Assembly: GCF_000143415.4 (NCBI RefSeq)
Contig: NW_003314264.1
Location: 3,357,710-3,421,709 of the forward strand
Origin: Selaginella moellendorffii
Taxonomy: Eukaryota; Plantae; Lycopodiophyta
Length of the DNA stretch: 64,000 bases
Reading direction: 5' to 3'
Every line of letters begins with the position of its first letter. Within the stretch, counting starts at the first letter, position 1. A program made the position numbers and the translations under genes. The notes beneath the pieces are model-generated. The model saw nothing but the letters and a program-made list of their open reading frames with translations. It searched no databases and had not been told where the DNA came from. This document shows positions 1 through 60,963 of the stretch, piece after piece.

Positions 1-429
1 ACTCGGTCTCATCCGATAAACTTTTTATCATTTCAATTGTGGTTTCAGGGATCCTTTATCCTACAACACCTCGTGTTGGTTCCTTACAACTACACCACCC
101 ATAAAAGAAGTTCGACACCCACATCGATCATCTCTTTTTAATCCTACAACTTGTTGACCATGTCTCCGGGGGCATCCCCCCATTTAGCGGTATACCTAAG
201 TTAGCCTCCCCGGCCAAAAGCCCATGACAATGGAGTATAGATGTCCCTATACCTCTCATCTCACCACACCCTAGTATGGGGTTGGGACTTGAACCAAGCC
301 TTGCTTTACTAAAGGGTTGGGATTCGAACCCAACCTCCATAGAATATGTCTACAGATTTGACATCCATGTGGGGAGTTGGGCATAGTTCCTTATGCCTGG
401 TCAACCTAGTTAAGCCATGTTAATTAGCT

Positions 430-2627
430 TACTTTTGGCGTGCCTTCATGTCCCAATGTATAATATTACTCAATTTTTCAAATAGATTCTAGGTTCTCCT
501 CGGGTTCCCATGTTGCTTCTCAATGTTGAAATCCTTTCCACTTCACATGGAACTCCCTCACCTCACGTTTTTGTCGCTTGTTCATACGCACATTAAGAAT
601 GGCCTCGACCTCGTATTCCTCTTCCCCTTGGATGACCTTAGGTAAAGGTTTTATTTGGTTTTTGTAAAGTGGATCCTTAAAGTACGGCTTGAGGAAGTTC
701 ACGTGGAACATAAAGTGCATCTTCCCCATCTCCTAAGAAAGTTGGAGGTGGTAAGCCACTTTACCAATTTGAGCCTCAATTTCATAAGGCCCTGCAAACC
801 TACTTAAGGAATTCAAGATCAGTTCATTTTCAGGAATACATGCATTTTACCTTTGGGTCAACTTCCAGTTGATCCCACTTGGTAATTTTAGGTTCTTAGT
901 GTTCAGCCACACCTTTTCCCTATGTTAGAATTCTATGTCTAGATGTTTATGGTTCACATATTTAATTTGCCTTTGTTGAGCCTGTTCCAAGGAATCCCTT
1001 ACTAAATTCCAAATGTTGAGTCTTTTATTGTTCACTATAGGCAACTTTCCATGATACTCGGCCACACCGAGTTCCACAGGATCTTCAATAGCTTGCCTAT
1101 TGATGACTTCCCATGGACTCACCTCGATACTCAAATGTAATGAGTTGTTATAGCACATTTCTGCAAGTTCCAAATGACTTACCCAATCAGTCTTGTCTCT
1201 AGAGACATAGCATCGTAAATAATCCTCTATCTGTCTATTCACCTTTTTCGTTTATCCATCTGTTAAGAAGTGTTATTGCCTCAAACTTAACTTAATACCA
1301 AATATCTGTTTGTGGGTGATACACTATGCTGAATTTCAACTTGATGCAATATTGTTCTAGAAAAGTTCTTCAGAACTTACTAGTGAAGATCTTATCTCAA
1401 TATGAGATAATTTTTCTTGGCCTTCCCTGCACTTAAACCACTTGTTTGAAGAACAGCTTCACCATATATTTTGCATCCACTTCTGTTGTGGTATGAAATG
1501 TGCCATCTTCGAAAACTAGTCCACCACCATAAATATCACATCAAACCCCTCACTTAGGGGGAATCCCATGATAAAATCCATTGTAAAGCATTTCCACGGA
1601 CGATTTGGAATTCAGAAGTTTTGTAACAAGCCCCACTAGCCTTAGTCATAGCTTTGACTTGTTGACATGTTGGATATGTCTTTACATAGTCTTGGACGTC
1701 CTTAGCTATGTTTGGCTAGTGATATTTTTTCTTGAGTAAACCCATTGTCTTAAGCACTCCACTATATCCTGCAAAAGGTCCATCATAACACTCTTCTAGT
1801 CTTTTCTTCAGTGGGTGGCTTGTCTTTTTGGTGAGCATCTTACACTTCTTGGTTCCTTAGCAACACTTTTTGTGTTAAACCATCATTCTCAGATGTTATC
1901 TACACATCATCCCAAAAGGTTGATGTTGTGTTGGATATCACAAAATTCAAGCTTGTGTTTCGACTTAGAGCATCTACCACAATATTGCTCTTCCCAAGTT
2001 TATACAAAATCTCACAATCAAATTTGGCCAAAACATTGGCCCACCGACCTTATTTCCCTCTCAGGTTGGGCTGTGATAAGAAGTGTTTCATTGCCACATT
2101 ATCCGTGTAAACTTTAAACTATTTCCTAAAGCAATGTTGCCACTCTTTAAGCGCCTTGACCACCGCAAACAATTCTTTTTCGTGGGTAGGCCACTTTTGT
2201 TGAGCCTTGTCCAACTTTTTCAAAAAGAATACTACTGAATGGTTGTTTTGCTTCAAAATTGTGCCCAATACAAAATCTAAAGTGTCTGTTTCTACCTCAA
2301 AGTCTTTACTAAAGTTTAGTAATGCCAACATAGGAGCCTTCTTCAACTTCCATTTAAGGTGGACAAATGCTACTTTACATTCTACTATTCATACCATCCT
2401 CTATTTTCCTGTTTAGTCTGTTAAATGTAGGATTACTTTTGAATAGTGTTTAATAAACTTTCGGTAGTAATTGTATAACCCCAAGAATGCCCTTAACTCG
2501 ATGGTTGTTTCATTCCTGGATTGTTTGGACCTTCTCAGTATTCACCTTAAGCCCATCCTTGCCTACCATATGTTGGAGAAATTTTACCTTTTGTTGAGCA
2601 AAGTCATTTTTTTTTTTTAGCATATAA
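430..2627 (-). mobile_element. Degraded Ty3/Gypsy chromovirus pol fragment (RT end, RNase H, integrase, chromodomain)
   Basis: Minus-strand pieces: RT ..LYAKK..DFAQQKVKF (~2580-2627); RNase H FEVETDTLDFVLGTILKQ..WPTHEKELFAVVKALKEW (2119-2346); integrase NRQIEDYLRCYV..DWVSHLELAEMCYNN (925-1242); chromodomain EEYEVEAIL..FHVKWKGF..ATWEPEENL (~480-729). Many stops and frameshifts. Confidence 0.92.
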
Positions 2628-2649
2628 GCTCTATTTCGTTAAAGTGGGA
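2628..2649 (+). repeat. Left terminal inverted repeat (22 bp)
   Basis: GCTCTATTTCGTTAAAGTGGGA, exact reverse complement of 16308-16329; the gypsy RT reading frame stops abruptly here. Confidence 0.95.
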
Positions 2650-3067
2650 ATTGTCATTATCCCACTTGTAAAATAAGGTTTCCAAACCTTTATATAGTAT
2701 ATAAATATAACAAAATTCAACTGCATTGAGGCACATGCCATTTTATTTTAAACAAGGAAATGTCTACTCAATCACTTCTCCTCCCCCTGCCACTGCTTCA
2801 CCTCTCTCTTCTCCTTGTTATCGTCGTCCAATTTCTTTCCATCCTTTTAATATTGGCTCAGTTGCTCCGAGTCTAGGTGGAGCCCAAGTCCCCATTCAAT
2901 CTTTACTTTCCCCTTATTAATAAAACAACTTCGTAGACTTCCAATAACATGCTGTAACACTTCTAGTATAATGCAAATCCTCTCAAAGAATTATCTTTTC
3001 ATATTAATACAATGGCATGGAACCCCATGCCATAATAAGTTACATTTTTAAATAAATACATGCCATC

Positions 3068-4583
3068 TCAGACTGTTATTTTTTGCCTCCAACGCCTATA
3101 CAATAATCTTGGAATTTCATCACTCTCCACACTATCAGGATTTAAACCCAATAGTAATGCCATCTCTTCTCTAATACGTCCACGCTCATGTTCAGTGGTC
3201 GAAGAACCCATCCGGTTGAGCAAATTATGGAGATGCGGATAGTGCTTGGCTAGACAATATACATGCCATAAATGATGACTGGTGTCTGTCCGATCAAATG
3301 GCTTCTGATATACCGTTCCATCTGCCATTTGGTTGATTTCTGCAGCCACCTCCTGGACTGGCCGGTTCTCTATCACCATCGCTCCAAGCCGTTTTGCAAG
3401 GTCCCCCAGAACATACGGTTTCTTCTCCCTAGTTTCCATACTGCAAGAGATGGGGTGCACTGCATATGTGTGTTCGCTGCAGTTTTAATCGGCGAGTCAT
3501 CGATGATGAGGATTTCACTTGACCTAGCGGTCCGGTTCATCACTACAGCCTCTGGCTTGACGAAGATGGGCTTGCTACCCCTCACATGGACCATAGTCAA
3601 GCAATCCTTCTGCGTTAGGAGAAAGTCAAATGGTAATATTACTCGCGTCTGATCGTGCATCATCTGTAGCAACGTTAATGCATTGTGGCGCATCATGGAT
3701 GTCCAAACTCCCAATTGCAAATTGAACCCGGCCCTCTGTTTTAAGTGTCGCATGGTCATTATTAGATCCCGTAGTTTCTCCCGTGTGATTAATGTGAATC
3801 TGTCTCTTTTGACCAACTTGCGACCGCAGGCTTTGGAGGGTGCAGTGACATTCGAGGACGAGCCACGCTCATGGGAGAAAAGGACACCGTTCAGATCAAA
3901 AACGATACAGTACTTTCGCCGTGACTCTGAAATGAAATGCGTCAGCATAAAAAATGGTACAAGTCAATTTTACCATCTACAATATTAGCGAATGGTGCTC
4001 CCGATGGTCTTTCAGAGGGTTTTGGTCGAGGAAACGTGAAGGGCGGAAATACTCTCCTCTGCAATGTGGGGTCAATCGCATCCGATGGCGTGTGGGCACA
4101 TGCCATTTCAGCTGTAGACTCTGGTACAACTGGCTCAACAGTGGCATGGGGTGGTTCCGATGGCGTGTGATCACACGCCATTTCAGCTGGTGCCTCCGTT
4201 GGCAAAGTGGACATGACCGAACAGGCAGCAGGGGCGGTGTAGGGAGGTTCCAACGGCGCGTAGTCAGACGATTGGGCACATGTTGAGTCCGTTGGAAATG
4301 AGGATACGACCGGCTCGGCGGCTGGGGTGGCCTCATGCGGGTCCAATGGCGCCTGGTCACCGTCAGTTGGATATGTGGACAAGATTGACTCAGTGGTATG
4401 GGCAGCATCAAGTGGAGCGTGGTCAGCTTGCTTGGCGTTGATATGGATAGTAGCCTCCACCAGCTCTGATGACTCTTGCAGGCAAGTAGAGTCCACTGGC
4501 GGATCCATATGCATGTCCAAATATCTCCCTTCGATTGAGATGGTATCCTCCCTACTGGCTACTAAAAACAAACTCATTAGCAC
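3068..4583 (-). pseudogene. Transposon cargo: FCP1/NIF-type HAD phosphatase-like protein with Pro/Thr-rich repeat N-terminus (two frameshifts)
   Basis: HAD motif I-like CIVFDLNGVLF, GVWTS and motif IV-like ILIIDDSPIK (3373-3948). Continues via a frameshift near 3470 into AVHPISC..PVQEV (3068-3460). Joined upstream via a frameshift in a T-run (~3950) to ORF 3942-4583, which has 25-aa repeats (EMACAHTPSD / EMACDHTPSE). Confidence 0.75.
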
Positions 4584-4809
4584 ATTGAATCGACTATACT
4601 GTATTTACCATCAACTGCTATTGGGCGCACTGCTGATTCTGAAGGATTGGACATATGTTTTGACCCTTGCTTGGCACTATCCTTCCTCGACACTAAAGGC
4701 TAGAGTTTGTATCTTAATTCAACTGAATAATCTCTACTTACCATTTGCTTTGCAACCTACATGGACAATGTTAGAAATGGTAAAAGGTTAGGAATGGATG
4801 TACTATTAT

Positions 4810-5497
4810 TTACCTGATGGTTTGTCTTGTATGACCTTCCTCCGCTGCTCTTTGGCCACCTCAGGCTGGCCATCGTCATCATCATCGTCGTCGTCGTTAT
4901 TATGATCGTCACCATTGTGAGGACCATCCAAGTCCTCTTCATCCTCCTCTTCTTCGTCCTCCTCTTCTTTGTCCTCCTCTTCGTCCTTCTGCTCTTCCTG
5001 CTCATTATCTTTCTCTGGCTCCTCATCCCCCTCCTGCATTTCTTCCATAGGCTGCTCAGGCTGGATGGCTTGTTCTTCCAGGACCATCTTGGGAAAATCA
5101 TCTGGCCGAGTCTCCATCTCAAAATACAAGACATCCATAGCCTGTTTTAGTGCGTGACCTAGGACCGTATCCTCACCCGACTGTCTTAACATGGTTTCTG
5201 CACGTTCTTGCACCCTTTGAAGACGACGAGATGAGAAAAACGTGGCCCTGACTTGAAAAGCATCCCTCATCCATTGTACCTCTCCATTGAGATTGGGGAA
5301 GGGGAGTCCGCCATAGGAATCTGAGTCAGGAGGTGGTGACCGCGAGGCATTACCTATCATCTTTTCGTTGCCCTTCTTCCTTTTCGAATCAAACGCCTCT
5401 GATCCCGACGACTGTCCAACGTGCTTTCGCTTTTTATGACCACTGTCAGTTTGAGCTTGGCTGGTGCTTGCCTGTTTTGCCTTTGAAGAAGTGTCTC
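4810..5497 (-). CDS. Transposon cargo exon: basic NLS-like segment plus long acidic (E/D) tract
   Basis: ORF 4806-5630 has KKRK and KRKK followed by EEEDKEEEDEEEEDEED..DDDDDDDD. TGCAG acceptor at ~5498 and GTAAA donor at ~4812 on the minus strand. Probably a downstream exon of the 5797-8365 gene. Confidence 0.55.
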
Positions 5498-5796
5498 CTG
5501 CAAGGAATGGCATGAGACCACACGCCATTGCAAATATAATTTGTACCCCCTTTTTTCCTATTGCTTGTCTGTTTGTCCTTCTTCGACGCGCCACCAGTGC
5601 GCTTTTCAGTCCTCGTGTCTGAATATTCACAACGATCTATAGTCAAAATGGCGTGAGGCTTCACGTGACCTTACCTTGTGCAGGTTGTGAGCTCGGCCCA
5701 ACAGTAGCTGTTAACGCCGTTTCAGCATCTGGGGGTGGCCACGCTCCTGCATACAGAGCTTGTGAGATAACATTTAAACTTAAAGTGTGTACTCAC

Positions 5797-8365
5797 CAGG
5801 TTCGCAGAGAAGATACTGTTTTTCTTTGGCAACTGTAATTATGTGCTTCATTGAAGTCACCTCTTCAATGGAGTTTGTCACCGCAACACACGGGACACCC
5901 TTGAGTAGTGCGGCTCGAAAGAATAGTCTGCCGCAGTTGTACTCGACAACGCATTTGCCCTTGGAGTCAGAAGCAGGTGCTATTGCGTTGAAGACCCAGC
6001 TGAGCATTTCCCATGCTGCACCTGGAGCTTTCTTTGGATTCGAAAGCTCCATAGCCGTCTTCAGTTCCTCAGGCACGGGTAAATTGACCTCCTTCTGATC
6101 AATTCGATCGGCCTTGTCGAACGAAGCTGGGAAGTCACTCTAGTCCCACTCTGCTGCAGGACCAATAACAAGGGCGAGTGTGAAGATGCGGACATTCGTC
6201 GGTATCTTCTTCTTAGCCATTATCCTATGGATCTCCTGCATCTCCTTGCCTTTCAACCGAGCCTTCACCTCGTTCAAGGCCTTCCAGAACTTGTGATAGG
6301 ATTCGGAGTCGTAGATCATATAGTGGACTAAAGATTCCACCTCCGCAAGTCCCACCATTAAGTCAATGATGGAGCTGACTTCGTCTGCATGAGTGATCTC
6401 CTCGTTTGTGAAGTCCATCACACAAAAGATGTTCTTGACCTGCTCATCTCCGCGGGAAACGATGCTCCTCCACCTTTGATCCTCATCCGAATTCACGTAT
6501 ACCCGGTAAGGTTCTCGATAGGCCTCTACTGCGGGGTCGAGCTGTTTCTGAAGCCGGCGGTCGACATCCCTCTTAATGAAATTTGGATACTGATCCAACT
6601 TCTCAGCTTTACTTTTCGTGGTATCCCGCAGCAGATCGATGAACTTGGGGGCCCCCTTCACGTAGTCGTCGATGTCTTCATTTGACAACTCCAGCTCTTC
6701 CATCATCTCTTGCGTGGTGTCGATGCTCACCCTCTCCACGGCCACTTGCTCGAAGATCCAATCCTTCAATAGCGTACGAGCTCTCAGAGTCGTGCACAAG
6801 TCCTCGTATGTCACAATATGGCCGGGAGTCATTTTGGTCTTGTTGAAGACTACCTCACCACGTAGAAGAGCATTAGCCACTGTCAGAAGGTCATCGTCGT
6901 CTAGAGACCGCGAGAAATGCAAGGCGTTGAGCTTCAAATCATTGGGCTTCCGGCCGTCCTCCACACCCATTGAGTTTAGCAACTCCCCGTCATGGTACCT
7001 CCTCAGCACATCTACCCATTTGTCAAAAACAACTTTTGTCGCGAGTAGAATGTTATGGATGCTGAGTGTGTCATTGACCCCCAGTGTTTTCGAGAGAAGA
7101 CTCGAGAATTCCTGCAATGGAAATGGCGTGAGGCCACATGCTATGCCACATGCAACGAGGCTTACCTGCCAGGCGCTAGTTGCTAGTGCATGTCCTTGTC
7201 CTGGTTTTTGTGGCTTCTTCAGTTGAACCCAGAGCTTCCGTGTTCGTGCCAATGTCTCGTGCAGACCCGATTTGTAGCACGTTTCTTGCTTGACATTCTG
7301 CGCGTGGGAGATGGATATGATAGATCGGAGGGGCGAGTTGCCTTTTATCAGGCGGACAACTCTTGTCTTGAAGACTTTCTTCACCTCCTCGCCCACCATA
7401 ATATCCACAACTATCTCTTGCATCGCCAAGCTAGAATGCTGCCCGGAGACGGCATAGAACTGGATGTTCTGATCGTCCAACACCTTCCTATTGATCAAGT
7501 CTGGAAACCTCGTCTCGCCCTTCATTGTTCGGTAGTAGGGGATCATGTCTGCGATGTCGGGTGTTACTGGACTTGCCAGCATCTTCTACTTCAGTTTCTC
7601 CACCCACTCATCAGATACTAGCCTGTGGTTGTATTTGCTTTGGATGTCGATACGGCTCACGTCGATTGTATATACTTTGTTGGAATAGTAACAAGTACTA
7701 TTATCTGCGACGATTTTTGCTGCCTCTTTTTGCTCTTTTTGCTCTTTGCGGCTCTTCTTTTTGGTGGGTGTAGTGTTCGAACCCGAGGCAATGGCATCAC
7801 CGAGTAGCTTCTTTTTTGGAGCAAGAGAGTCGGACGTCGGCTTGAGCTTGACCACCCTTTTCTGCTTCGGGGTAGTTTCCAAATCGACCCCCTTCCCCTT
7901 TGCTTCGCGAACTGGAGGCACTCTCAACGGCTCAATGTTGGAATATAGTTTTTGAACATCACCGTAGGTGAGGTCCGTGGATTCCATATGATCTTCATAG
8001 ACCCGCAGCGTCTTTGAAATTGTGGGCCTCCTGGAAAACCTCTCCCTAGCTCCCTCTAGGAATTCCTCATAGCCGCTGCCCCCCTCCAGGAAGCCGCTAG
8101 GATGTGCAAGGTGGATCTTGAAGGCGGACGCTGTCTCTACCACAAGTGCCAATCCATATTCTTGCATGGAACTGCATGGAGTGTCTGTCACTTGGATGAG
8201 GATCCCCATGCATTCTTTTCTCCCACCATCTATGTTGTACAGCCTCAGATCCTCGCCTTCCATCCCGAAAGTCCAACTGGTGAGCTCCTCCCCCTTCTCT
8301 GCATCCACATTGACAGTGGCTGGAAGAAGAACGCAATTCCTCGCCTGTTCAGAAATGCACAACAA
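5797..8365 (-). pseudogene. Transposon cargo: ParB/Srx-like domain plus degenerate amino-methyltransferase-like C-terminus
   Basis: ORFs 7586-8365, 6140-7582 and 5780-6076 share one frame and are separated only by single TAG codons. ParB-like: IDVSRIDIQSKYNHRLVSDEWVEKLK..FYAVSGQHSSLAM. C-terminal WVFNAIAP..GKCVVEYNCGRLFFRAALLKGVPCVAV resembles the SAM-binding end of beta-class MTases. In-frame 54-nt GT-AG intron at 7112-7165. Confidence 0.6.
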
Positions 8366-10157
8366 TTAGAGCTGACAGATGAAAAGCTAGCAGCTGGAAA
8401 TAACGTGAGGCCACACGCCATTCACCACTGCATCAGATGTCTTGAGGCTGCATCCTAAGATGGCGTGAGGCTACACGCCATCTGTAACCGGACTGCACTC
8501 GAGAGCCCAATCGGTGCATGCCAATGTTGCTACTAAATGGCATGTGGCCTCATGCCATTTTCTACTTGGCCTAAAAGACTTACCATTTGAAGCCGAATGG
8601 AGGCCGTGACAATCGAGGTCGGACTCGCTGGTGAATGTGCACTGTGTGTGCAGCGGATCATAGCAGCAATGCTACTCTGCCACTTACAGTTGGAGAGTGG
8701 CGCTGAAATCTCCCGGGACGCCAAGTGGGCTGCGTATGGGTGGCGGAGTGGGCGGCGGAGTTGGCGGCGAAGTTACAAACTGGGTGTGTCTTGAAGTGGA
8801 CGCCGATGCACACGAGCGCGATGCGAGCGCGAGTGTGATGCAAGCGCGAGTGGACGCCGATGCACACGAGAAACCTGTAGAGAAGGTAGATGAGCACGAA
8901 TGTGAGCGTGATCGCGAGTGGGAGCGCGATGCGAGCGCGAGTACGAAGCAAAATGCAAAACCTAACCTCACACGCGGGAAATGTCACAACGGTTGGTAAT
9001 CCCGCCATATCATCATTCCTCGGACTTGGGCGCCACCATTAATTTCTAGATTGCCGCGCGCATGCAAGCACGCAAAATCCAAAAGAAATCCGCAACGTCA
9101 TCATTCCTTGGACTGCATGCACGCGAAATCCAAAAGAAAGATCATGATTGGGATATCATTTAATACCCTCGCTATATTTATACCATGCATGATTGGATAT
9201 TCCAAAGCATCTTGTATTTCCAAAAATGGCAGATGTTCAGCTAAATAAAGAAATTCTATCTGTTTCTATTTTTCTCTCAAATCAATATTATAGCGTGTGG
9301 GCTCATGCAATTTTGAACCAAAGAAACCCAAAAAACGTTGGACCCAAAATATTTTGAAAAAACCCAAAAAACCCTAAACATTTTAAACCCAAAAATCCAG
9401 GCATCCTGTGGCATTATTCCTTGAATGGCGTGTGGGCGCATGCCATTTTCAGGGCCAAATGCTAAATGGAGAAAAATTCCCTTTCAGTGCAAATGCTGCA
9501 AGAGGCAGATGCCGAGCACAAAGGACTGTAACTACCTCACATGACACAGATAAACTTTTCTCTATTTGGCAAAGATAAACTTTATAGCGTGTGGGCTCAT
9601 GCAATTTTGAACCCAAAAAATGCACCAAAAAATTCTCGGCGTCATCTGGCATTATCTCTTGAATGGCGTGGGGCCACATGCCATTTTCAGGGGCACATAG
9701 GAGTATATTCCTAGGATATTCTGACACGCGCGAGATTTTTTTGAGTTTTCTGGAGATCCAACCGTTAGATCGCAACTAGATTTTACAGAATGGTATACAA
9801 TGTCTTTCTTGATGACCCTGCAAAGAAGCATCTCGATCGGACACCACATGAGACCACATGAGCCTTACAATGTTTCAGGGGCATTTGCCATAGATCCGAC
9901 CGTTATTTTGCTCCAAGATTTTACAGTTTGGTGTGCATTGACCTTTCCATCGACACTGCAAAGGGACATCACAATCAGATGCGGGATCACAAGAAACTAA
10001 CTTCACTAACTCTGGTTTCACCAAGATCTACGTAAGGAGTTATGAAATGAAAGGACCCTCTCTATTGAAATGTGTTTATGGTCCTAGGGGCATTGTGACA
10101 TATGAAAGGATTTTGCATCAAGTTCTGTATTTGCATGTTTATCAAGCTACTGAATTG

Positions 10158-10184
10158 CTAAACCCTAAACCCTAAACCCTAAAC
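10158..10184 (+). repeat. Short interstitial plant telomere-type repeat (CCCTAAA)n
   Basis: CTAAACCCTAAACCCTAAACCCTAAAC. Confidence 0.8.
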
Positions 10185-11274
10185 ATGTGGCAAATGCTGC
10201 GTGAAGAAAGATGCCCTTTCTGGGCAAATGCTGTAAGAGGCAGATGCCGAGCAGATGTATCTTAGGCTAGCGAAGGGGACAAACGAAAGCTAGCTATAAA
10301 CATGACGGGATGCAAATAGATTACTACACTGGTCCTGCGAAAATCAAAAACCATAATTGAAAACATTGAAAATGCAAAAAGAAAGGTTTATAATATTTTT
10401 GAATTTTAAGCAACCAAAGGAATGTAAGTAGGGCATGTGTTTGTAAGTTTAAAAATGCCTCAACCACTTAAATTCCCAAGTAAATAAAGCTGTTTCTATT
10501 TTTGGTACAGGTAAACTTTATAGTGTGTGGGCTCATGCAATTTTGAACCCAAAAATGCACCAAAAAATGCTCGACTAGCATTATTCTTTGAATGGCGTGT
10601 GGCCTTATATTGCCATAAATGGACGTACACACACAGCATAATTATTCCTTTACACGGCGAATAATCTTGGCGCGGATCGCTGACATGGCATGGCAAAGTT
10701 CGAATCACTGACATGGCACAGCTGGATCGAGGCAAGGACATGATGTGACAAAGTTCAACCTCCGACAGCAAAGTCTAGAAGCTACTCAGTTTGAAATTTG
10801 TCAGAGGAGTTATAAGATCTGGTTTGTCAGAGGATTTGATGTGACGTTCAAGCGTGTGTTATTTTTGAATTCTCGAACTCATTCCTAGGTCTATCATTTT
10901 TGTGCGCCGTGTTCTTGGTTCCGCTGAGCGCAGTGAGCGCTGCTTGTGTAAGCGGCGTTGTGAGCTGTGGTTTATGCGTCTACGAGCAGTTGCGGCATTG
11001 CGAGTGCCATTGCGAGCGGCAGTTTATGTGAGTGGCAGTTTGTGCGAGCGGCGCTACGAGCAGTTGCGGTGTTGCGAGCGGCACTGTCTTTGGTGTGGCT
11101 ACCGCTTCCTCTTGATATTCGGCACTTGTGCTTCCTGGTATGTTCACCATGGAATGGCTTAGGACCACATTTAGAAATGGCATGAGGCCACATGTCATCT
11201 TGGGCCCTTGCAATTTCATGGCTAGCGTATTGTCATGTATGTTTTTACTTGCCTGCAGCTGTGTGTATATCAAG

Positions 11275-11457
11275 ATGGCATGAGGCCTCATGCCATCTTT
11301 GGCCCCTGCTAGCCTATTGCCATATTCCTTTTGAACTGTATATATTTTTGTATGGGTGACTAGTCACGCACACAAAAATATATACAGTTGCAGCAAGGCA
11401 AAAGGAATATAGCAACAGGTTAGCAGGGGCCAAAGATAGCGTGAGGCCTCATGCCAT
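11275..11457. repeat. ~183-bp foldback (long inverted repeat) upstream of the transposase
   Basis: Arms begin and end with the 22-bp palindrome, pair with a few mismatches and one 9-nt bulge, and are centred on GTGACTAGTCAC (11356-11367). Confidence 0.9.
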
Positions 11458-11645
11458 TAGTGGTACCACTAATGGCATGAGGGCTCATGCCAATTTTGTG
11501 AATGCGAAATTTCACGTGGGTGTCAATAGCATGTTTGAATAATGGCATGTGGCCTCATGCTATTGAGGTTGTTTGGTATGTTATGATTTAAGCCATTCTC
11601 CAATCATTTTTTGTATGGTCTTAACTTCTTTTCTGCACTTTCAGA

Positions 11646-14600
11646 ATGGCTTTCAGGGTTGGGGAAAAGGTTTACATTTTGAATGGTGGGAAGAGAGTTG
11701 CAAAAGGGACCCTTGTGTCTATGGATCGGAACTTTGTTATACACTGTCAAAGGCTTGGGGAAGGCAATGTTGCTGTATCAGTAGAGACTGCCTTCGATGG
11801 GAATGTGGTCGCTATTGAACAAGGAGAGATGGTCGTTGGGGTAAATGTTGTTGTTGCCTTGAAAAATCTTCAGAAGAAAGCAGATGTTGGGGACAGCGCA
11901 AGTGCGACGCATGTTCCCTCCGTGGATCTTAAGAACCGTGCTACATGGATTCAGGCGAAGGTGTTTCTAAACAACCCCGAGGGGGAGGTGGTAGCTGAGG
12001 GCTTAGCCACAGTTGTCGATCCAAGAGATGCGATTGCTAATCAAGAATTGGGCTGGGATGATATTGGAGTTGCGATTTTAGAGGTTGTTGACACAGAAGA
12101 AAACAGTCTGACTATTGGAAGCATTGTGCGGTGGAAATTGAGGCACTTAGTGTTTGAGAATGTGAAGGATTCACAATCAAACACCACTACAACTGATGAC
12201 AGAACATCTCTTCATGGGAAAAGAAAGTACACCTTCCTAAAGCGCAGCCAAAGGGATCTGAGGAACGAACCGAAAAGGCAGAAAATGGCGATGGAGGTTC
12301 GAATGGTCTCGACAGTTGCTTGTTGCAAGAGGAGGTGCTGTCAACATGCTGATTGGGATGCTATTGAAGAGGAGAGAGCAAGATACAAGACATTGTCCTG
12401 GAAGGCAGCTCGCAATTGTGTATGAGGCATTACGGTCATCTGTTGATGCTTCAGAACATCAGGTGGGGGGCATGGTCTTCCAGAGGGGTTTGGTCTGCAT
12501 GAAGGCATGGAGAATCATTTATGGAGTCCCTCGAACCACATTCTACAGAATCAAAACTGAGTTCGAGGAATAAAGGGTTCAACAGGCAGTCCATGGGAAC
12601 GACGGTACGCACAAAACCAGGGGTCATGTTGTATATGGAGAGGCAATCTTCAAGAGGTTTGTCGAGACATGTAGTGAGCAGCAACCACATAAAACCCGCC
12701 TCTTGGAAGATGGAACACGAGACACCCAACGAGTTCTCCCTTCCATGTATACCAAGGGGGCCATATTGGAAGATGTGAATCGGGAACTCCAGAGTAATGG
12801 CTACAGGAAGCTGAGCCAATCTAGATTTAGTAGATTGTGGAGCAACAGGTTTAGGGATGTGAGTATAGGAAAGTACTCCAGCTTTTCAAAGTGTGACGAG
12901 TGCACTGCTATCAAAATGGCTTTGTCGAAGAATTCTTGCAGCGCTCAAGAGCGAGAGACGTTGGTTAGAAGGCGGCTCGACCACAACATCGAGCAGAGAA
13001 GCTGCAGGACTGCATATTATCATTCCATGGAGAGACTTGACTCTTACCTCTGCATCATCCACAACAAAATGGACCACAAAAAGACGTGCTTACCTCGACT
13101 CAATCCTGCCCCCAAGGCAATCTCTTCATCCATGCAGCTGCCTATGTCTCTGTTTGGCATAATCGCTCATGGGCATGGTGCCCAGAACTATGGGAACTTC
13201 TTTGTACCTCTATGGGGTGGCGGGGGTGCAAACATGATGATTGCGTCCCTAGCAAAACACTTAAGGTCTCTGCAAAGTGCGCAGACTGAGCTGAATGGCC
13301 AACCCTTGCATAAGGCCCTTGTCGATCGAACCCCATACAGGGTTCAGCTGGAGGAGGAGCAAAGGCTTGCAGTATCGCGTGGGGCCCCATGCCATCCCAG
13401 TGAATATGTTGGCCGTCAGATTGTAGGGTTATCACGTGAGGCCTCATGCCATTCCGACGAGGCTGGTCGGTCGGTGAATGCACAGCCTCATCCAAATGAA
13501 GCAGAATCTCAAGGAAGTTCTTGCAGCCGATGTGGCCTTCCACCCCATCTTCTGCTCCAAACAGACAATGCTGGCAGTGAGAACAAAAACATGTACGTCT
13601 TCGCGTACTTGGCGATGCTTGTTGCCAAAGGCATATTTGAAACGGTTACACTTGGCTTTCTCATGGTTGGGCACACTCATGAAGACGTCGATGCCATGTT
13701 CAGTCACCTGGCAGAGTCCCTCCGGCGATCCAATGTCCTCACCCTCCCACAACTCTACGATGAATTCCAAAATTGCATCAAAGGCACTGTTGAAGCTGCA
13801 CTTGTGACAGAGGTTCCAGACTTTAAGGGGTTTGTAAGAGGCTACATTAGGGACGGATCCGAAACGCTGATTGGCCACTCCAAGCCTCTTCAGTTTCATT
13901 TCAGCATGTGTGACGATGCTCCAGTGATGAGGTACAAGATGAGAGAATGGGACACAGTGTGGCTGCCAGTGGACAGCATTGAACTCTTCAAGAGAGATCC
14001 CATAACAGGGGAACCTATGATTCCTCAGGGTTCCCCACGGCCGATGCACCCGGATGGACTCAAAGACCAGGAAAGTATAGTGGCCGGGATTAGACAGCAT
14101 ATTGCCTTCTGGAAGAGGGGGTTGGTGTTTGGTGGAGAATCCTATTTTCAGAGGTGCAAGCCTTTGCTCGAATACTGGGAGAAGATTATATCTACTATCC
14201 AAAATGGGCCGGTTGTATATAAAGAATTGGAAGAGTCCTTTTGGCCAGAACCCAGAGCACCAGATAGTAGCGGAACAATGTCCTCTGGAAATGTAGTGAC
14301 AGATAATGATGTTGAGGATCACTATTGTGGGCCGAGGAACAAGAAGCCGGATTCAGCATTCAATCCAGTACAGGTCTGCAAAGGAATGGTCGTGCTTGTC
14401 AGACCCAGTAATAAAAAACAAATGATATGGGTGGGGCGCTGCATCACTGATGCAGAGGAGGACGCGGAAACTAACTCCTTCAATGTAACTGTGGAGTGGT
14501 TCAAGCCAAGTTCCGGATATACGAAGGATTGCCTAGAAAAGAGATGGGTGCTGAATCCAAGGGATCCCAGCATGAGCATATCGGTGGATAATGTTGTGCA

Positions 14601-14700
14601 TGGTTGGATGCGGAAGCAGAGTGCCACCATCACCTTGCCAGACCATGCAAGAGATGCAGCAAGAGCATTCATAACCCGGGTTCAAGGTGAGATTTATTAA
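11646..14700 (+). pseudogene. Sola-like DDE transposase (one frameshift ~12400, one in-frame TAA at 12571)
   Basis: N-terminal CCKRRCC..VCMKAWRIIYGVPRTTFY, FSKCDEC, CIIH(N)KMD, LLLQTDNAGSENKN and FLMVGHTHEDVDAMFS. The DN..ENKN / GHTHED.D signature fits Sola-type RNase-H-fold transposases. ORFs 12316-12573 and 12703-14700 are in the same frame. Confidence 0.85.
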
Positions 14701-15413
14701 TATTCCTTTACTAAGTTTCTAATGTATTTTATTTCAAGGTGAACAATCCGAATCTGAATCAGAGGAGGCGTGATGGCATGTGGCCTTACGCCATTCCTAG
14801 GTGAGATGATACAAATAACAAGTATAAATTCTTAATTGTTCTAGCAAATCTTACTTAAAGTTTAAGGTGAACAAGCCGAATATGAATTCATCGGATTGTT
14901 ATAACAAATTGCGAGGTGATGGCATGAGGCGATACGCCATTTGAGAGTGGTAGCCATTCCTATATGAGGTGAGTGAAATATTTATTAGAAATACCTCATT
15001 CAATTGTGCACTTCTAAGTCTTGGTCCACTCAGTACTGTTTGCATGTTTTTATTTTAATTCTTTCTCTAAAATGTTATTTAGCATGTGGCTTCATGCCAT
15101 TGCTCTCCACAATCATGCATTGAATTTTTCTATCCTTGCATAAGACTTCTCCATATATATAGCATGTGCGCACATGTGATATGGTTCATTAGGCCTGATA
15201 TAGTGTGTGAGGTAAAACAAAGATGATGTGACATATGCATTTACCAATCACATGTGCATAAATCTAATAATATGGCGTGTGGCCCATATTAATGGCACAT
15301 AAACCGATATTGTGGGCTTACGTGCTTTATGTACCATCATTCCCTTGCAGCGTGTGTGTTGGTTTCCTTTTATAACACAACGAACTCCATATTTTAGGGT
15401 GAAGAGCGTTCTC

Positions 15414-15671
15414 ATGGCAAGCACAAAATCTGTAAGTGAGGCAGAAAAGGAGACGGGGAAGGAGATAGGTGAAGATGTAGAATATATAAGTCTTCCAAAC
15501 TCCCCGTACTATACTCCAGGTGATCATTTTTCTGAACAAACGGCAACATTAACAACTATCGAGAACGCCCCAGTAACATTAGAGACAACAATCCAAAGCA
15601 AAACAACTGACCCGGAGAAGGATGATAGTACTGCTGAGAGTACCAAAAAGGAGGTGTCCACTAGCGCTTAG
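15414..15671 (+). CDS. Small transposon-borne protein of unknown function
   Basis: MASTKSVSE..VEYISLPNSPYYTP..ENAPVTLETTIQSK; homologous to 21640-21825(-) VNFVSLPQSLYYTL..KNAPVTSETTI. Confidence 0.55.
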   Translation: MASTKSVSEAEKETGKEIGEDVEYISLPNSPYYTPGDHFSEQTATLTTIENAPVTLETTIQSKTTDPEKDDSTAESTKKEVSTSA

Positions 15672-16307
15672 GCTTATAATGGCGTGTGCCCTCATGCCAT
15701 TTACTTGATCACCAAATACCTTTTTCCCTTTGCACTAGTATATCTTAATACCGGTTTGAGAAATAGAATGGCATGTGCCCTCAGGCCTTTTACTAAATCA
15801 CCTTTGAAAGAAATGCAAGCCTCTATGTCGTAAAAAAAAGGTATTAGAGAAATTCCTTAATAATATGAATGTTATTTAGTTTCATGAAAATACACTAAGG
15901 GTCAAATGAGTTAAATGACTTCTCCAGACTAGCAATGCCTCTTGCTACACCTTCACAATTAGATTCGTTAGAAAAAGATAACATTGAATAATATCTAAAT
16001 GTTCTCACCATTAAATTATATGTCTGGCTAATAGGAATGACGTTCATCTTGGAAAGCTCACCACACGCTCAATGAACAAACAAATAGTGTGTGCGCGCAT
16101 GCTATCGCTCTTCTTTAGCTTCAGATTCGGCTTGTTCACCTTGACAGTGAGATTTATTATACAACCAGATGGACTCAGACTGGACACAAAGTCACCGCGC
16201 TAGTCACCATGCCCCAGATATGTCTAGCCCCTGGACAAAAAACATATAATTTCACGTCATTTTCAAATACTTGAAAATTTGTACCTAGTCCCATTTTACT
16301 GAATAAA

Positions 16308-16329
16308 TCCCACTTTAACGAAATAGAGC
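16308..16329 (-). repeat. Right terminal inverted repeat (22 bp)
   Basis: TCCCACTTTAACGAAATAGAGC, exact reverse complement of 2628-2649. Confidence 0.95.
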
Positions 16330-16333
16330 ATAG

Positions 16334-19300
16334 GTGTAGTTGAAGCTGAAAGAGAAGTGGAGTTACCTGAACACATTGTAGACAAGTGCTTCCAAGAGAT
16401 AGTTTTGAGAACCAAATAAAAAGTTTTTCACATGACTCTAGAGTCTCTCAAGTGGGAAGGCCCAGGAGACATAATCCGAGAAATCCCACTATGTCGATTC
16501 ACTCAGACAAGCATCATTTGGTTTGCTTCACTACACTTCGTCAATATGGACATCTATAGTCTATACAAATAGAATGGCCTTGGGACAAACATAGATATGT
16601 TCCTTGTTTTGGTCTTCAAGCCAGGAATGATAAATACCTTCTCGATGTCACCGGAAATCGAGAAGGTTTGGGATGATATTTGGAAAATGAAGTCCCGCGA
16701 ATTTGACAACATGTTTATGAGCCATTCTAAGACTCAACAATTTGTGGGGAAAATGTTCTACATTATTGACGGGAATCATCGCTAGTGTGTGTGGATGAAG
16801 TGCATCAATGAATGCTTCCAAGAAGATCTTGTCTATCACATCAATGTTCTGGTTGGACATGTACATGCGAGAGGATCTCTAGATGTGGCAAGGCTTGTGA
16901 TAGCTTGCCACAAAATTAATGCATAAGTACCTCTCCTTCTTCAATCACTTTTAACAATTTGTGTTTTGCAGGCTGGGACAGTTTGTAGTGCAGAAACAAA
17001 GCCTAGTACATAATATCGAGCAGATCCCAATCTCAATGAGGATGCAGTCTGCAGCCACTATGGTGATGATTTAGCATCACTTATTTGGCATCAACGAGGT
17101 CATCAAGATGCCAATAGATGGTACAAGAATTTAGTGGCTTTTATGACAACTGTGTGGAGTAAGGTATGTTCTTCCAAGTATACTTCTTATCATAGAATGT
17201 TTGTGTTGTCTTCAGCCATTGGTGAAGGTTAAGCAAGATGCATATGCATAGTCGCATCGAGCTGAAAATGATTAAGAACTCTTGGAGCATTTAGCTGCAA
17301 TTGACAAGAAAATTAACAACACAAAGAAGACAAAGGTAAAGAAATTACTTAGTGTGGCTGACCTTTGATGCCCAAAGGAGTGGTTTGATATTATAATAGA
17401 GATTTTTTGTCATGAAAGTAAGTATTGTTTATGTTTACATGAAGGTTACTCACAAAAGTTATTTCTTAGTGGGCAAAACTCCAGATGAGATTATTTACAA
17501 CATCTCAAAGTCAAAACTTACATATGAGGAACAGATACACATTCTGAACGACCTCAATAGCAGACTCAGGGAAGGAGAAAAAAGTTTGGACAGTATGATG
17601 GAGACTGTGAGGAGGATCGTCTACATTTCACAAACTGTATATAAAAGGGAGATGTTTCTAGCGCCTTTCATAGGGGATGATCCTAAGCAACTTCCATTCA
17701 AGGACTTCAACACCACTGAGCTTACAAAACTGGGAGAGGACTGGCTGCCAAAGAAGGCCACAAGCACGACTCCATTTGATAAACAACTTGGCCAACCTTA
17801 CTTTATGTGTCAAGCGGCTTTTAGGTAACATACAATTTTTCAACTATACTCAATTTGTTTATATTCTATTATAGGTATCTCCAATATAGAGGCCTTCCTC
17901 TCGAAACACCGGTATGCACACGACTCCTGAGGCATGGTGTAAGAGATGGAGGCATGTACCCGACAACAATGAAGTTTCCAACAGCAATAAAGCGAGCTTG
18001 TCCTTGGGAATTTGAGATGCTAGATTATACACCAACTCACCGAGAGGCTGCAAGAGGCAACAATGAAAACGTGCCAGATGACAAAGATGATGGCCATGAG
18101 AATGTTGACACTATTGGTGCCAATGGCAAGGAGAGTGAAGATGAGAACGACTTGCAAGAAATTCCTCCAGACAAAGTCTAGCAAGAGAACCAGAACGTCA
18201 AAGAAGTTCTACTTCGACGAAAGCGTGCAAATCCATATCTAGAGGAATTAGTCAACAATGATGATGATCGTCCAAAATGTCCTCGTAACCGAGGAACTTC
18301 TCGAGGTATATTTCTCTTAATTCTCTCCTTTTCTTAATTCCTCAAAATGGTTGCAAGAAAAACTGTCAGGAGTAACTTCATTCCAGCTCGTCTTGATGCT
18401 CGAGAAGAGGACCTGGAAGAACTTACATCTACCACACGCCACATGACGGTATGTAAATTTTTCTTAAGTTCACATTTTATCTTTGTCTTCTCCCCCTGGA
18501 TTCACCTTGTTTCTCCAGTGGCATTCCGTGGTGAAGTTGGGATCTTTATTGGCTCCTACAGTTCATTGATGGCATCTTTTGAGGAGGATGCTGAGAATAT
18601 AGCTATCCTGCAAAAGTGGGAGTGCTTTTGTTAGAAGATTCATAGGTGGCCGCTCAAGAGCACAAACTTCATGTTCTTTGATATGCCAGATGGTCTTCCA
18701 GACGCTAATGATGATGTCCCAAGCTAGAACAACCTGACTGAAGACCACTTGAAAGATGCATTCCTTTTGGCAGCAATTCTCCTTCACACAACTGGTCAAG
18801 TTACCTTCATTCTCCTGAATGACCCCCATTGGATGTCCTACCTTATGAGGTATGCAAGTCGAGTCAACTTCAAGAGGTTAGCTTTCCGGGTGCATCATGG
18901 ATAGTGTTGGGGTCGAGACCAAAGGCGTCCTAGACATGCCAGAGAAGGTAAGAAATCATCTTCTGTTTTGGTTGTCTCTAAAGTTTTATTATTCAGGTTA
19001 TGATGTGGACCTACCATGTGTTCTGCAGAAGAGAAAATGACAGTTTTGGTGATAGCGAGCGTGCTGCAAGGGTTTTGCTAGGGTATGATAGCTTTACTGA
19101 CATCATACCAAATCTCATAGACAACAAGATTTGCAACACATTGTCTGGGTATCAGTTCCGATCTCCATCGGCGATGCATGTCCTACTTGAGCTTTATTGC
19201 CCAACTAGGGGTGTTGTCATCGATTGTAGGTAATGGTTCGATAGTCGAAGCAGCACGTGACTTTGGTAGATCGGTGTTTGCGATTGAAGAACATGAGTTC

Positions 19301-19350
19301 TTCAAACGCCGTCTTAGAGGTTTTCATCCTTCTCTATCAGTTGCTTCTAG
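16334..19350 (+). pseudogene. Spliced ParB/Srx-like plus beta-class N6A/N4C DNA-methyltransferase-like gene relic (5'-truncated)
   Basis: Translation through stops: EIPLCRF..KMFYIIDGNHR*CVW (ParB GxxR motif, ~16760-16790); TNFMFFDMPDGLP..VPS*N (motif IV position, 18680-18694); LAAILLHTTGQVTFI (motif VI-like); FRSPSAMHVLLELYCPTRGVVIDC/GNGSIVEAARDFGRSVFAIEE (motif I region, 19156-19290). Short GT-AG introns are present. Confidence 0.75.
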
Positions 19351-22244: not shown

Positions 22245-24900
22245 TTATCATGAGATTGAACATGTGAAGCACTTGGACCAAATGCAAAAGCTAAATGGCA
22301 TAGATATCATTCACAGGGCTAGCATGTCCTCAAGTCTGGAATAGGACTTATGGAGATTGTAAGTGAAACTCCTCTAAGTGGTCAAAAGTGTAGTTAAGTG
22401 ACTAAAGTAAAATGGAAAATTTAGTTGTTTACATTCTGCTTATGACTACTTGACTCATTGGGTGGAAGTTAATGCTCTTGCTAATGCATTTGCAACTATT
22501 ACTAGATACTTCCTCCTCAATTGAGTGGTGTTCTAACATTCTTATCCTAAGTAAATTCTTTCAGATAATAGTTCCACATTTATGGCTGAGGCATTTTACA
22601 TTTTGAGGTCTCGATTAAAGATACACCACACTTTTATGAGTGCTTATTATATATAGTAAGATGGTTTGGTTAAGCAGCTCATTTAGACCTTTGAAGGCAT
22701 GATCGCAAAGTATATGAACTTTCAACTTTCGAATTAGAATGGTTATTTACCATCTCTTTTGTATACATATGTCATATGGGTGCAAAGTTCTATTGGTGCT
22801 TCACCATATAAAGTTCTATAGGGTCATGATCTGATACTACTAATGAAGTTGAATTTACCTTCCCGATTGCCATGAACTACTAATGTTAGGTCTTGTAATT
22901 AATATTTGACAAGCTTTCTTCCACTTTTCTAAGCAGAGTCTACCGAACATTTTGGCCACATACAAGTGGGACAACAATGGCAGTATAATGTAAAAAACCA
23001 ACTCCCTAAGATGTTGTAAACTAAAGGATTCCTAAAAATACGACCGAAATGATAAGGAGTTCATCAAATGAGACCGAGTCCAAGATCGAGTCCGAGACCA
23101 ACTTTGAAACCAAGTTTGAGATCAAGTCTAAAACCGAGTCCAAGACTGAGTCCAAGACCGAGTCCGAGACCAAGTCCGAGACTAAGTTTAAGACCAAGTA
23201 GTTCAAGACCAAGTCCGAGACAGAGTTAGAGACCAAGTCTAAGATCCAAGATTGGGTCCAAGATTGAGTCTAAGATCGAGTCTGAAATAGAGTTTGAGGT
23301 TGGGTATAAGATTGAGTCCGAGACCAAGTTCAAGGTCGAGTCTGAAATCGAGTCTGAATACTAATACAAGTTGTGGGGTGAAAGCACAAAGTGTGTGTTT
23401 CCCAAGGGAGCTACAGAGGGTTTCAAAAGTATAATAGAAATAGTGAGGTCCAGGAATAAATCTTAAAGGAACTCTTTAGTGGTGCTTCCAAACTAACTTG
23501 AGGTTGAGACTGGGGCTTAGAGGCTTTAGGTGGGAATGAGCATGGACTCGGGTGGTGCCAGACAAACCACCCAAGGAAGTGCTCAAAAGCAACTCCCACT
23601 CCCAGAAGGGAAACTAACTAAAGTGCTCCCAGCTCATATGGAATGATGCCCCACTTAAGTACCTTGTGGTTTATTGATCCTCGCCCTTCCTAGAGCTTGG
23701 GCTTTCCCTTTGGGATGGAAGTGGGGGAATAAAGATACCTATATCAGGCTATTAGGCCATAGTGTTTCCCCCCCGTGTCCTGAAGCAAGTGTTGCACCTA
23801 AGGCTTGAGATTTAAGGTGTCCTCTGATCAAGTCTTAAAGTACCAAGGGATGTTATCAACCTGGAGGCTTGGTGTGTTTGGTTGCTTATGCCTATGGGGA
23901 GTGCAATAGAACCTTAAGTCTAGTCTAACCTAGGGAGGGGGATTATGAGAGAATTTGGGAATTTGTGGATGGATAGATAACTCTCTATTACTTATATAGT
24001 GAGTTGTTGAAACTAAGTAGGACCAAGTAGGAGCTAGTACAATAGGCAGAAACCTTGGTGAGGGAATTTAACTAAAGCCAAGGCCATGGTGGTCGGATAG
24101 ATGAGGTAAGCTAACAAATTAAAAAGGAAAAATTTGTGGTTTATAATTTAGTATCAAAGCCTTTTCCTTAATTCTAGCGAAGGACAAAGACAGATTGTTG
24201 AGAGATGGGTAAAGCAGGGTGTAAAAGGAACCAAGGTAGAGATGGAACCTTTGATTAATTAAGAAGCTATGGATGAGGAATCTTTCAATGAGAAAGACGT
24301 TAGTGAGGAAACTTCCAAACAAGAGTCCGATGGTAAAGTTTGATTGTCCAAGGCTCTTGTCACGCTTTAGCTTGTGTACAAAGGTCTTTAGTAGGGCATT
24401 GATTTGTGCCAATTATCCTCAATTATCCTGAAGAGGAAGAAAATGCAAAAGACTATAGATGTTGGTAGTTGCACAAGGTGTGGACCCTTTGGCAAGGACT
24501 GAGGTGGAACCAAACAAAGTCGAACAAACCGAAGTGGAATTAATCCCTTAAACAGTTCCCAAGTACAAAAAGCCCCATCAGTCTTCAAGAAAGTAAATGA
24601 CTATAAGGTGGTAGAGGATTGGTTTTACAATATAGAGGATTACTTCCAAGCGTTGTAATTACCAAATTTGAAGAAGATCCCATGTGTGAAACCATACTTG
24701 GCAAATAATGCTAAATCTTAGTAGAGAACAATAGAGGCTAACGAAGGACTAATGGCCACTTAGGAAATGATGAAGGTGAAGATTTGCCTGATTTACGTTC
24801 CTTCAAATGCTACTTTGCACCTAAGGGATTAGTTGAATAAGCTGAAACAGATAAAAACCATTCAAGAGTATGTGAATGTGTTTATGGCATTCATGGCATT
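22245..24900 (+). mobile_element. Degraded LTR-retrotransposon sequence (integrase remnant, tandem-repeat region, gag remnant)
   Basis: Integrase-like WVEV..ILSDNSSTF..HHTFMSAYY (~22455-22800); gag-like DYKVVEDWFYNIEDYF (~24600). 22249-22430 is similar to 48895-49070. Confidence 0.7.
23040..23360 (+). repeat. Degenerate 12-bp tandem repeat (GAGTCCAAGACC-like)
   Basis: Repeated GAGACCAAGTCC / GACCGAGTCCAA units ending in GAATACTAATACAA, the same ending as the array at 47235-47470. Confidence 0.85.
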
Positions 24901-30772: not shown

Positions 30773-31124
30773 GGCGCAAAAGTCTACATTTTCGAGCTAA
30801 GTCAAGCTTAGTCCTTGAGGAAGAAGCCAATGTGGAAACGTGTCGGATCCCGACAAACGCTGTAAGAGATCTCAAAATACAATTGTTCGACTACAATTGA
30901 AAGAAAAGTTCTAGTCCTCTTTCTCGATTGCCGAGCTATGGATGAGGTCACGGCACTGTGATTGCGCACGGCGACAAACCAAGACACCTCTCTCTAGAGT
31001 ATGGCTCCAAAACGCTCGCTCGCCATAGCTTTCGATCAATCCAAACGAGAGTTTGTTATGAGGCACAGGAACAAGCTCCGTCACGAGAGGAGGAGATTTG
31101 TACAAGAAAAGAGCTAAAACGACA

Positions 31125-41310: not shown

Positions 41311-41520
41311 TGCCACTGCTTGCTCAAACCCCAAGGATTACTATCAAGTTTATTTTTAGTGTTTTACAGAAGTAACACGATCTCTTTGAACGGCTGTGAT
41401 TTGCCAGAAATATTCTATTTTCTCGTCTTATTTATAACTTTGTGATTTAAAGGTAAACACAATGCTTTGAACTATGTTTTAAAGTTGAGGTTTTGGCCAA
41501 GAAAGGGGAGCCCCCCGTCG

Positions 41521-60836: not shown

Positions 60837-60963
60837 CCCGAAAAACCCTAAAACTCGACGAAGTAGAGAATATTCTTTAGCGCTGCCACGTGTTGGTGAA
60901 AGCTGTCCACGTGTCACAATGAATCTCCTCCACGTGTCACCAATTTCAAGAGTTTAGGGTTCT

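Follow-up and report, generated by a model that had tools for sequence, protein, structure and literature searches.

A predicted ParB/Srx-like fold joined to a predicted methyltransferase-like fold in the accessory gene of a giant, palindrome-bearing Sola-like transposon of Selaginella moellendorffii

The stretch of DNA analysed here, called the window, comprises 64,000 nucleotides of the genome of the spikemoss Selaginella moellendorffii (contig NW_003314264.1, positions 3,357,710 to 3,421,709), and it holds a decayed copy of a Sola-like DNA transposon of 13,702 bp, bounded by terminal inverted repeats (TIRs), at 2628..16329 of the window. The element carries a transposase gene and, on the opposite strand, an accessory gene that joins a domain predicted to have the ParB/Srx fold to a region modelled as a beta-class amino-methyltransferase (MTase) fold. 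The first domain lacks the arginine of GxxR and the second lacks DPPY, and a 22-bp palindrome is dispersed along the element in 26 copies.

The accessory gene is read on the minus strand, in a frame that is open from 8365 to 5783 except for two TAG codons, at 7588-7586 and 6142-6140. The initial annotation, made from the letters alone, had joined three open reading frames (ORFs) into one frame broken by two such stops, and the frame, the stops and the motifs it relied on are all found where it placed them: IDVSRIDIQ at 7666-7640, NHRLVSDEW at 7630-7604, FYAVSGQHSSLAM at 7459-7421, CVMDFTN at 6424-6404 and GKCVVEYNCG at 5959-5930. A profile built from 12 homologs without the query gave 117 bits for this frame and 2.5 bits for the next-best segment of the window, and the frame is therefore more than a chance occurrence. 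The 54-nt intron proposed at 7112..7165 (minus strand) also agrees with the gene model; it is in frame, has GT-AG ends (GTAAGC...TTGCAG) and holds one palindrome, and the homologs that span the site (P0020, P0023 and P0029, for example) are gapped there. The gene limits first given as 5797..8365 need revision at both ends, since the gene does not stop at 5797, which is the end of an exon before a GTGAGT donor, and the stretch 8365-8320 is probably intronic. P0001 was considered as a spliced transcript and rejected, because its skip coincides with a deletion present in DNA contigs.

Comparison with public contigs of the same organism (runs X1, X4, X5 and others) showed that both TAG stops are private to the window copy. 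The other copies read CAG at the first and TGG at the second, a combination shown by contigs that make up about 99.6% of the summed depth of run X1 and by those of X4 and X5; the expectation of a glutamine at both stops thus holds for the first, while the second is a tryptophan codon. Over 5850-7700 the other copies contain no frameshift, and their sole indel is a 9-nt in-frame insertion at 5978. Because they read Gln and Trp at the stops and the family frame is open over this interval, the window copy is a pseudogene of the accessory gene. It differs from the others there at 21 sites, 19 of them amino-acid-changing or nonsense and 2 synonymous, after removal of one of 22 difference rows (6696, present only in X19); at 4 of the 21 the copies vary among themselves. 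The opposite trend is seen among the sites listed for 7739-8152 (at least 8), with 6 synonymous and 2 nonsynonymous changes, and the combined ratio of 21 amino-acid-changing or nonsense to 8 synonymous changes over 29 listed sites is close to that of neutral drift. Of 15 C-to-T changes private to the window copy, 11 affect a CG or CHG site, against a background of 36%, as would be expected for a methylated, silenced copy.

The N-terminal region, a basic linker and the ParB/Srx-fold domain are encoded by a single exon (7166..8319, minus strand), delimited by the frame, the gene model and homology, within which the domain itself occupies 7280..7687 and is interrupted in the window copy by the first of the two stops. 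An AlphaFold2 model of the domain from 14 sequences reached a predicted local distance difference test (pLDDT) score of 82, and the resemblance to the ParB N-terminal domain that had been noticed by eye was recovered by three structure searches. Foldseek against the PDB gave Noc 7ol9 as top match (E 1.3e-4), the leading matches being Noc, ParB, Srx, KorB and PadC, and among the matches listed, 28 rows down to rank 46, all are of ParB/Noc/Srx type. VIA, a structure search separate from Foldseek whose wide search covers 48,161 chains, placed members of the ParB/Srx superfamily at ranks 1-8 (Z 6.2-9.9; next row 3.7), including PadC (Z 9.9), KorB (9.2; root-mean-square deviation, rmsd, 2.8 over 93 aligned residues), ParB-N (8.4), SerK (8.1) and Srx (7.6), and the BFVD search was led by phage ParB-like proteins (E 2e-4). 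The alpha-beta fold of the superfamily is present by model and by structure matches. None of 13 sequences has the arginine of GxxR, as had been remarked for the window copy: 11 read SGQHS (7447-7433 in the window), one SGQHL and one DGQHT, with G-Q-H invariant in all 13, and the other copies of the element agree. Judging from these alignments, the missing arginine is a family trait with a conserved alternative motif, and not a product of decay. With neither this arginine nor a match to the Pfam ParB family (0 of the 16 homologs described below, at E up to 0.1), the domain is ParB/Srx-like but lies outside the ParB CTPases. A helical region is modelled after it and palindromic sites are present in the element; the region is a candidate for the place taken by the central helix-turn-helix (HTH) in ParB proteins, and the palindromes are candidate parS-like sites.

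Downstream of the intron, a model of 7111-5783 from nine sequences is confident only for its first 190, mostly helical residues. This conserved middle region (6540..7111, minus strand; pLDDT 60-91 by 10-residue block) is the candidate DNA-binding part, and the wide structure search with the 7111-5783 model gave no informative fold match for it. The part that follows (residues 199-435; 5807..6517, minus strand, with the second TAG of the window copy) is delimited by its structure matches. In the VIA wide search, ranks 1-11 were all beta-class DNA amino-MTases (Z 9.9-7.9), headed by CcrM (Z 9.9, rmsd 5.2, 185 aligned) and including MboIIA, BceJIV, RsrI, PvuII and the bdelloid N4CMT, and the first unrelated fold came at Z 6.4; two further structure searches agree on this class, with a best Foldseek E of 0.047. 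The Rossmann MTase similarity first suggested from the letters is thus recovered, in a low-confidence model, together with the permuted layout in which a motif IV-like strand precedes motif I. In the ESM Atlas, residues 190-460 of homolog P0039 lie near an automatically named methyltransferase-type cluster (score 0.95) and, with a score of 0.90, near a cluster of N6_N4_Mtase, a family assigned to 39% of its members.

The absence of DPPY, with CVMDFTN near its expected place, extends beyond the window: at the presumed motif IV position the four clusters read DFTN (6415-6404), DLRR, DSAN and DATT, and CVMDFTN is unchanged in the other copies of the element. By this alignment the missing DPPY is a trait of the family rather than decay. 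The proposal of GKCVVEYNCG as motif I fits the layout in part; the other copies read EYNCGG (5944-5927) where EYNCGR had been read, P0020 has EYGCGG and P0039 DINTGG, all partial with respect to acidic-x-F-x-G-x-G. Because (D/N/S)PP(Y/F) is absent at the presumed motif IV in all four clusters, the MTase-like domain is likely a catalytically dead pseudo-enzyme.

An exhaustive HMMER search yielded 16 matches at E up to 1e-3 (best 2.8e-10), most of them fragments, one of which (P0032) was dropped as a low-complexity repeat. Three of the nine clusters looked up among these matches bear a species name, and come from S. moellendorffii, whose protein is the best named match to the gene, and the liverworts Calypogeia fissa and Riccia sorocarpa. 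Two annotated Selaginella genes, P0020 and P0038 (SELMODRAFT_409495 and 416075), are nearly identical to each other and share about 24-26% identity with the helical and pseudo-MTase part; their annotations do not include a ParB core, and the pair is possibly a domesticated derivative. Family databases were silent: a Pfam scan of the gene gave no family at E up to 1, PF01555 matched none of the query, P0020, P0039 and P0043, and PHROGs had no meaningful match for any of 11 pieces of the gene. Word-seeded protein searches were blank with the query (7,993 candidates scored) and with homolog alignment A1 (7,999 scored), and a PDB sequence search returned two rows, both unrelated. Locus scans with family alignment A5 gave 0 of 152 in metagenomes, 0 of 18 in viral sequences and 0 of 33 in prokaryote genomes, and tblastn of P0039 against phages was blank; a P0039 locus scan gave 1 of 30 (L001), which was discarded as fortuitous because it falls within a bacterial glycosyltransferase-like ORF. 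Phage Vincenzo gp1, a ParB-methylase, had no profile match to either domain. As these searches turned up no close relative in prokaryotes or viruses, the description of the module as prokaryote-derived rests on its folds and not on a donor. Vincenzo gp1 (L002:1-1437), which lies beside a terminase, reads KGNHT and is also without the GxxR arginine; its alignment to SGQHS is not significant. In a separate ESM Atlas comparison the nearest neighbours of residues 295-480 of P0034 (homologous to 7687-7200) were fungal clusters with a score of 0.96, in which DUF3723 is assigned to 31% of members. DUF3723 has been described as conserved Starship cargo linked to TIGR02168, with no mention of ParB in the part of the description available, and the DUF3723 of Starships may be a ParB/Srx-fold accessory protein.

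The gene is predicted to run on past 5797. Its model has eight introns of GT-AG type (38-264 nt), picked by eye and all phase-compatible, and leads through basic, acidic and Pro-rich exons to a HAD domain that ends near 3068, so that the full product would have about 1,750 residues. A first exon is predicted at 8584..8980 (minus strand) from the gene model only, with a start that is not fixed and stops at about 8686 and 8674. Five further exons are predicted on the same strand within 3974..5746 (5746-5675, 5636-5547, 5497-4814, 4692-4609 and 4561-3974), joined by phase-compatible GT-AG introns of 38-121 nt; they are stop-free and of basic or low-complexity, acidic and Pro-rich content. The FCP1/SCP-like HAD (NIF) domain at 3068..3926 (minus strand; Pfam PF03031, E 6.7e-6) has a DLNGVL motif, and the window copy is without 4 nt at 3469 that are found in other copies. 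This domain may be the last exon of the accessory gene or a separate gene; in homolog P0031 a ParB-like part and a NIF domain share one ORF.

The element is bounded by a left TIR of 22 bp at 2628..2649 (plus strand; outer four bases ATAA) and a right TIR at 16308..16329 (minus strand; outer four bases ATAG), which match perfectly over 22 bp. Contigs of run X1 reach depths of 0.68-0.96 million along the element (bins 2877-3453 to 15571-16147) but only 0.02-0.04 million beyond 16725, about 25-fold lower, and an X4 contig stops at 2628 with a different flank, with many variant contigs. The element is clearly multi-copy, although the depth itself gives no copy number. ATAA and ATAG could be a 4-bp target site duplication (TSD), but they adjoin flanks that are different repeats and may not be one target site: on the left (window 1-2627) lies a Ty3/Gypsy-like pol relic, on the right (16330 onward) a second ParB-MTase-like repeat. 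The differing flanks suggest a deletion or recombination between copies. The second repeat bears a more decayed gene at 16330-19350 (plus strand), just outside the right TIR, with FYIIDGNHR, in which the GxxR arginine is kept, FFDMPDG and VVIDC..GNGSIVEAARDFGRSVFAIE. Judged by these motifs, the gene would combine ParB with a beta-class MTase and stand nearer to an active enzyme. At 19227 other copies are longer by 2-5 bases, and this relic went undetected by the family profiles and Pfam, with PHROGs giving one unknown family at E 0.003.

The transposase (11502..14700, plus strand) matches DUF7869 (Pfam PF25273, E 3.1e-42) and is about 38-42% identical to its ten best full-length relatives, bar one near-copy at 95%; no second DUF7869 transposase occurs in the window. 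The window copy has lost 2 nt at 12415 and 12 nt at 13023, and reads HNKMD where homologs have HDKMD. We take DUF7869 to be a Sola1-type transposase, and it is on that footing that the element is called Sola-like; a definition of the Sola1 motif was not found in the available parts of PMC5751038 and PMC4455052 (here and below, published sources are cited for the parts available). The N-terminus (11613-12200, plus strand) has tandem domains with a weak Transposase_23 match (E 0.05), and PF26133 is precomputed in homologs. A mismatch-tolerant scan found the palindrome, with consensus ATGGCRTGWGGCCWCAYGCCAT, in 26 dispersed copies within 3012..15789. All lie inside the element; none occurs in the 50.3 kb of the window beyond it when up to 4 mismatches are allowed, nor in any of 100 Markov shuffles with up to 3 allowed. 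Six of them fall in four of the eight predicted introns of the accessory gene, two in its Pro-rich exon and two inside the transposase ORF. Those at 5507-5528, 5648-5669 and 7123-7144 end 9-11 nt before the 3' AG of short predicted introns. The palindrome half CTCAC/CTCAT resembles a branch point, and a bound protein could couple to splicing.

The closest published design is that of Sola1-1_Ec32 of Ectocarpus, where a gene with ParB and N4/N6-MTase domains lies opposite the transposase and self-binding has been proposed (PMC12477816). Both are giant elements, of Sola type there (21.5 kb) and Sola-like here (13.7 kb), with an accessory gene opposite the transposase that combines ParB-like and amino-MTase-like domains. 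In the algal element, however, the accessory gene is transcribed and an active MTase is predicted, whereas here DPPY is absent family-wide; its TIR is imperfect and 282 bp long with a 4-bp TSD, in contrast to 22-bp TIRs in Selaginella, and the string 'palindrom' does not occur in the main text of that report (PMC12477816). Its transposase has Sola1-1_PPa_tp listed as best match (PMC12477816). The likeness of our protein to that of Ectocarpus is one of domain design and layout, the Ectocarpus sequence not being among the 16 HMMER matches. PPa in Sola1-1_PPa_tp presumably stands for Physcomitrella.

In red algae, Plavaka elements have the accessory genes PAG2 and PAG3, with a ParB-like domain; inverted-repeat arrays lie beside the ParB-domain PAG3 genes and are proposed as the sites of the ParB-like protein (bioRxiv 10.1101/2025.02.11.637652). 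They share with our element a ParB-like accessory gene, inverted repeats and a PF01555-type methylase in the cassette, there as a separate gene; they differ in that ParB is fused to a 2-oxoglutarate oxygenase and the methylase to SET, in belonging to EnSpm/Plavaka, and in having tandem repeat arrays, while the palindromes here are dispersed, some of them in introns. Accessory proteins with a ParB domain have been put forward as a new class, for which these sources, in the parts available, give no experimental test (PMC12477816; bioRxiv 10.1101/2025.02.11.637652). The ParB-methylase design of a transposon accessory gene is therefore already known from algae, and is here extended to land plants; the initial annotation, which cited phages and prokaryotic mobile elements as known cases, had missed it, which lowers the novelty.

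The N-terminal fold and the palindromic sites repeated along the element recall bacterial ParB, Noc, KorB and PadC with parS repeated along a replicon; unlike the bacterial ParB CTPases, our protein has GQHS for GxxR and is fused to a pseudo-MTase, and no ParA was seen. With the beta-class amino-MTases (CcrM, M.RsrI, M.MboIIA, M.PvuII, bdelloid N4CMT) it shares, in its model, a permuted fold with the motif IV-like strand before motif I, but it has no (D/N/S)PP(Y/F) and no PF01555 match; MpDN4MT1 of Marchantia, the known beta-class case in land plants, keeps TSPPY. Chlorophyte-type Dam methylases fused to a ParB-type HTH, and the MTases of phage ParB-Tls loci, are a further parallel (PMC4738411), in which a ParB-type module is likewise linked to an amino-MTase in eukaryotes and traced to phage loci; these enzymes, in contrast to ours, belong to an M.EcoKI/M.TaqI-like group. 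In the open-access literature we found neither the land-plant family, nor the family-wide loss of both catalytic motifs, nor dispersed or intronic palindromes, nor the HAD extension in print; Iyer 2011, Repbase and the Bostrychia supplements lay outside this scope and could cover land-plant members.

We give about an even chance to the accessory protein being catalytically dead and binding the palindromes of its own element. The helical middle region would let a dimer grip each two-fold palindrome, dimers would be linked to one another by the ParB-fold domain, and the dead methylase fold would contribute contact with DNA or chromatin. Together these would coat the 13.7-kb element and leave it open to transcription, or draw its far-apart ends towards the transposase, by analogy with the VANDAL anti-silencing proteins that act on their own elements. 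Several points weigh against this proposal. The GxxR arginine is needed for CTP binding in ParB CTPases; it is absent here, and a CTP clamp mechanism is therefore doubtful. Pfam gave no HTH, and the fold search was dominated by the MTase domain, whose own model is weak (pLDDT mostly 22-62, rmsd 4.4-6.5, identity 6-11%, with Foldseek E 0.047 at best). The DFTN aspartate was assigned to motif IV from strand order and the homolog alignment rather than a residue-level structural alignment. The N-terminal domains of the transposase could themselves be the palindrome binder, and the linkage of the gene to palindromes was observed for this element. No spliced join was seen in two public runs guessed to be RNA, which is evidence neither way.

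The fold could instead be enzymatic. The methylase part might retain activity despite an atypical motif, or might itself be inactive, as METTL14 is, and work with an active paralog, and so mark the element or its palindromes with N6-methyladenine (6mA) or N4-methylcytosine (4mC). An aspartate ends the motif IV-like strand in all four clusters, acidic-x-x-x-GG is retained at motif I in the three clusters that reach that region, P0043 keeps an HPxxKS word like motif X, the adjacent relic reads DMPDG and IDC..GNGS, and a methylation role has been proposed for the Ectocarpus protein (PMC12477816). Set against this, PP(Y/F) occurs in none of the four clusters and the motif regions are poorly conserved (about 20% identity among homologs), as expected under relaxed catalytic constraint, and we consider such activity unlikely. 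Another doubtful alternative is that the ParB/Srx domain is a nucleotide-using enzyme or sensor of the SerK, Srx, SbnI or DndB/DGQHR type, the palindromes being bound by the transposase. The Z scores of SerK, Srx and SbnI come within about 1-3 of those for PadC and KorB, the invariance of G-Q-H suggests a conserved pocket, a HAD phosphatase domain lies downstream, and P0031 joins its ParB-like part to NIF; but the match to PadC (residues 25-183) and Noc continues into the helix that follows the ParB core. Moreover, palindrome arrays adjoin ParB-domain genes in Plavaka, an unrelated superfamily, which favours the ParB protein over the transposase as the binder.

That the gene is a neutral passenger, captured without a role in the biology of the element, would suit the near-neutral changes of the window copy (21 amino-acid-changing or nonsense to 8 synonymous). 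It seems to us very unlikely, as the majority sequence is open over 5850-7700 with in-frame indels only, the module recurs in algal Sola and Plavaka elements, and liverwort homologs exist.

Elsewhere in the window, arrays of degenerate 12- and 23-bp repeats at 23059-23390 and 47236-47490 are followed by a shared 53-bp tail, and 1-71 matches 23009-23079 in inverted orientation; these are probably the ends of a long terminal repeat (LTR) element, and LTR relics are also present. Host genes recognised by inspection at 28922-30796, 60958-62694, 62770-63594, 38511-39407 and 40237-41337 comprise an intronless pentatricopeptide repeat (PPR) type, a short-chain dehydrogenase (SDR-like) type and a GDSL lipase-like type.

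In its broadest form, which we regard as quite improbable, the palindrome-binding proposal would mean that a self-recognition system derived from parS/ParB is present in the giant Sola-type elements of early land plants, in which one protein some 1,750 residues long, combining a ParB fold, a pseudo-methylase, an acidic region and an FCP1-like phosphatase, coats the 26 palindromes of its element, intronic ones included, controls its own expression and resists silencing at RNA polymerase II. The structural matches place liverwort and spikemoss proteins that are dark to Pfam, and possibly also fungal DUF3723, in the ParB/Srx superfamily. With a 22-bp candidate site, an open majority frame and a methylase fold without its catalytic motif, the element offers an unusually clean test case in a land plant. 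If binding holds, the ParB accessory class would work mainly by DNA recognition, and not by writing 6mA or 4mC.

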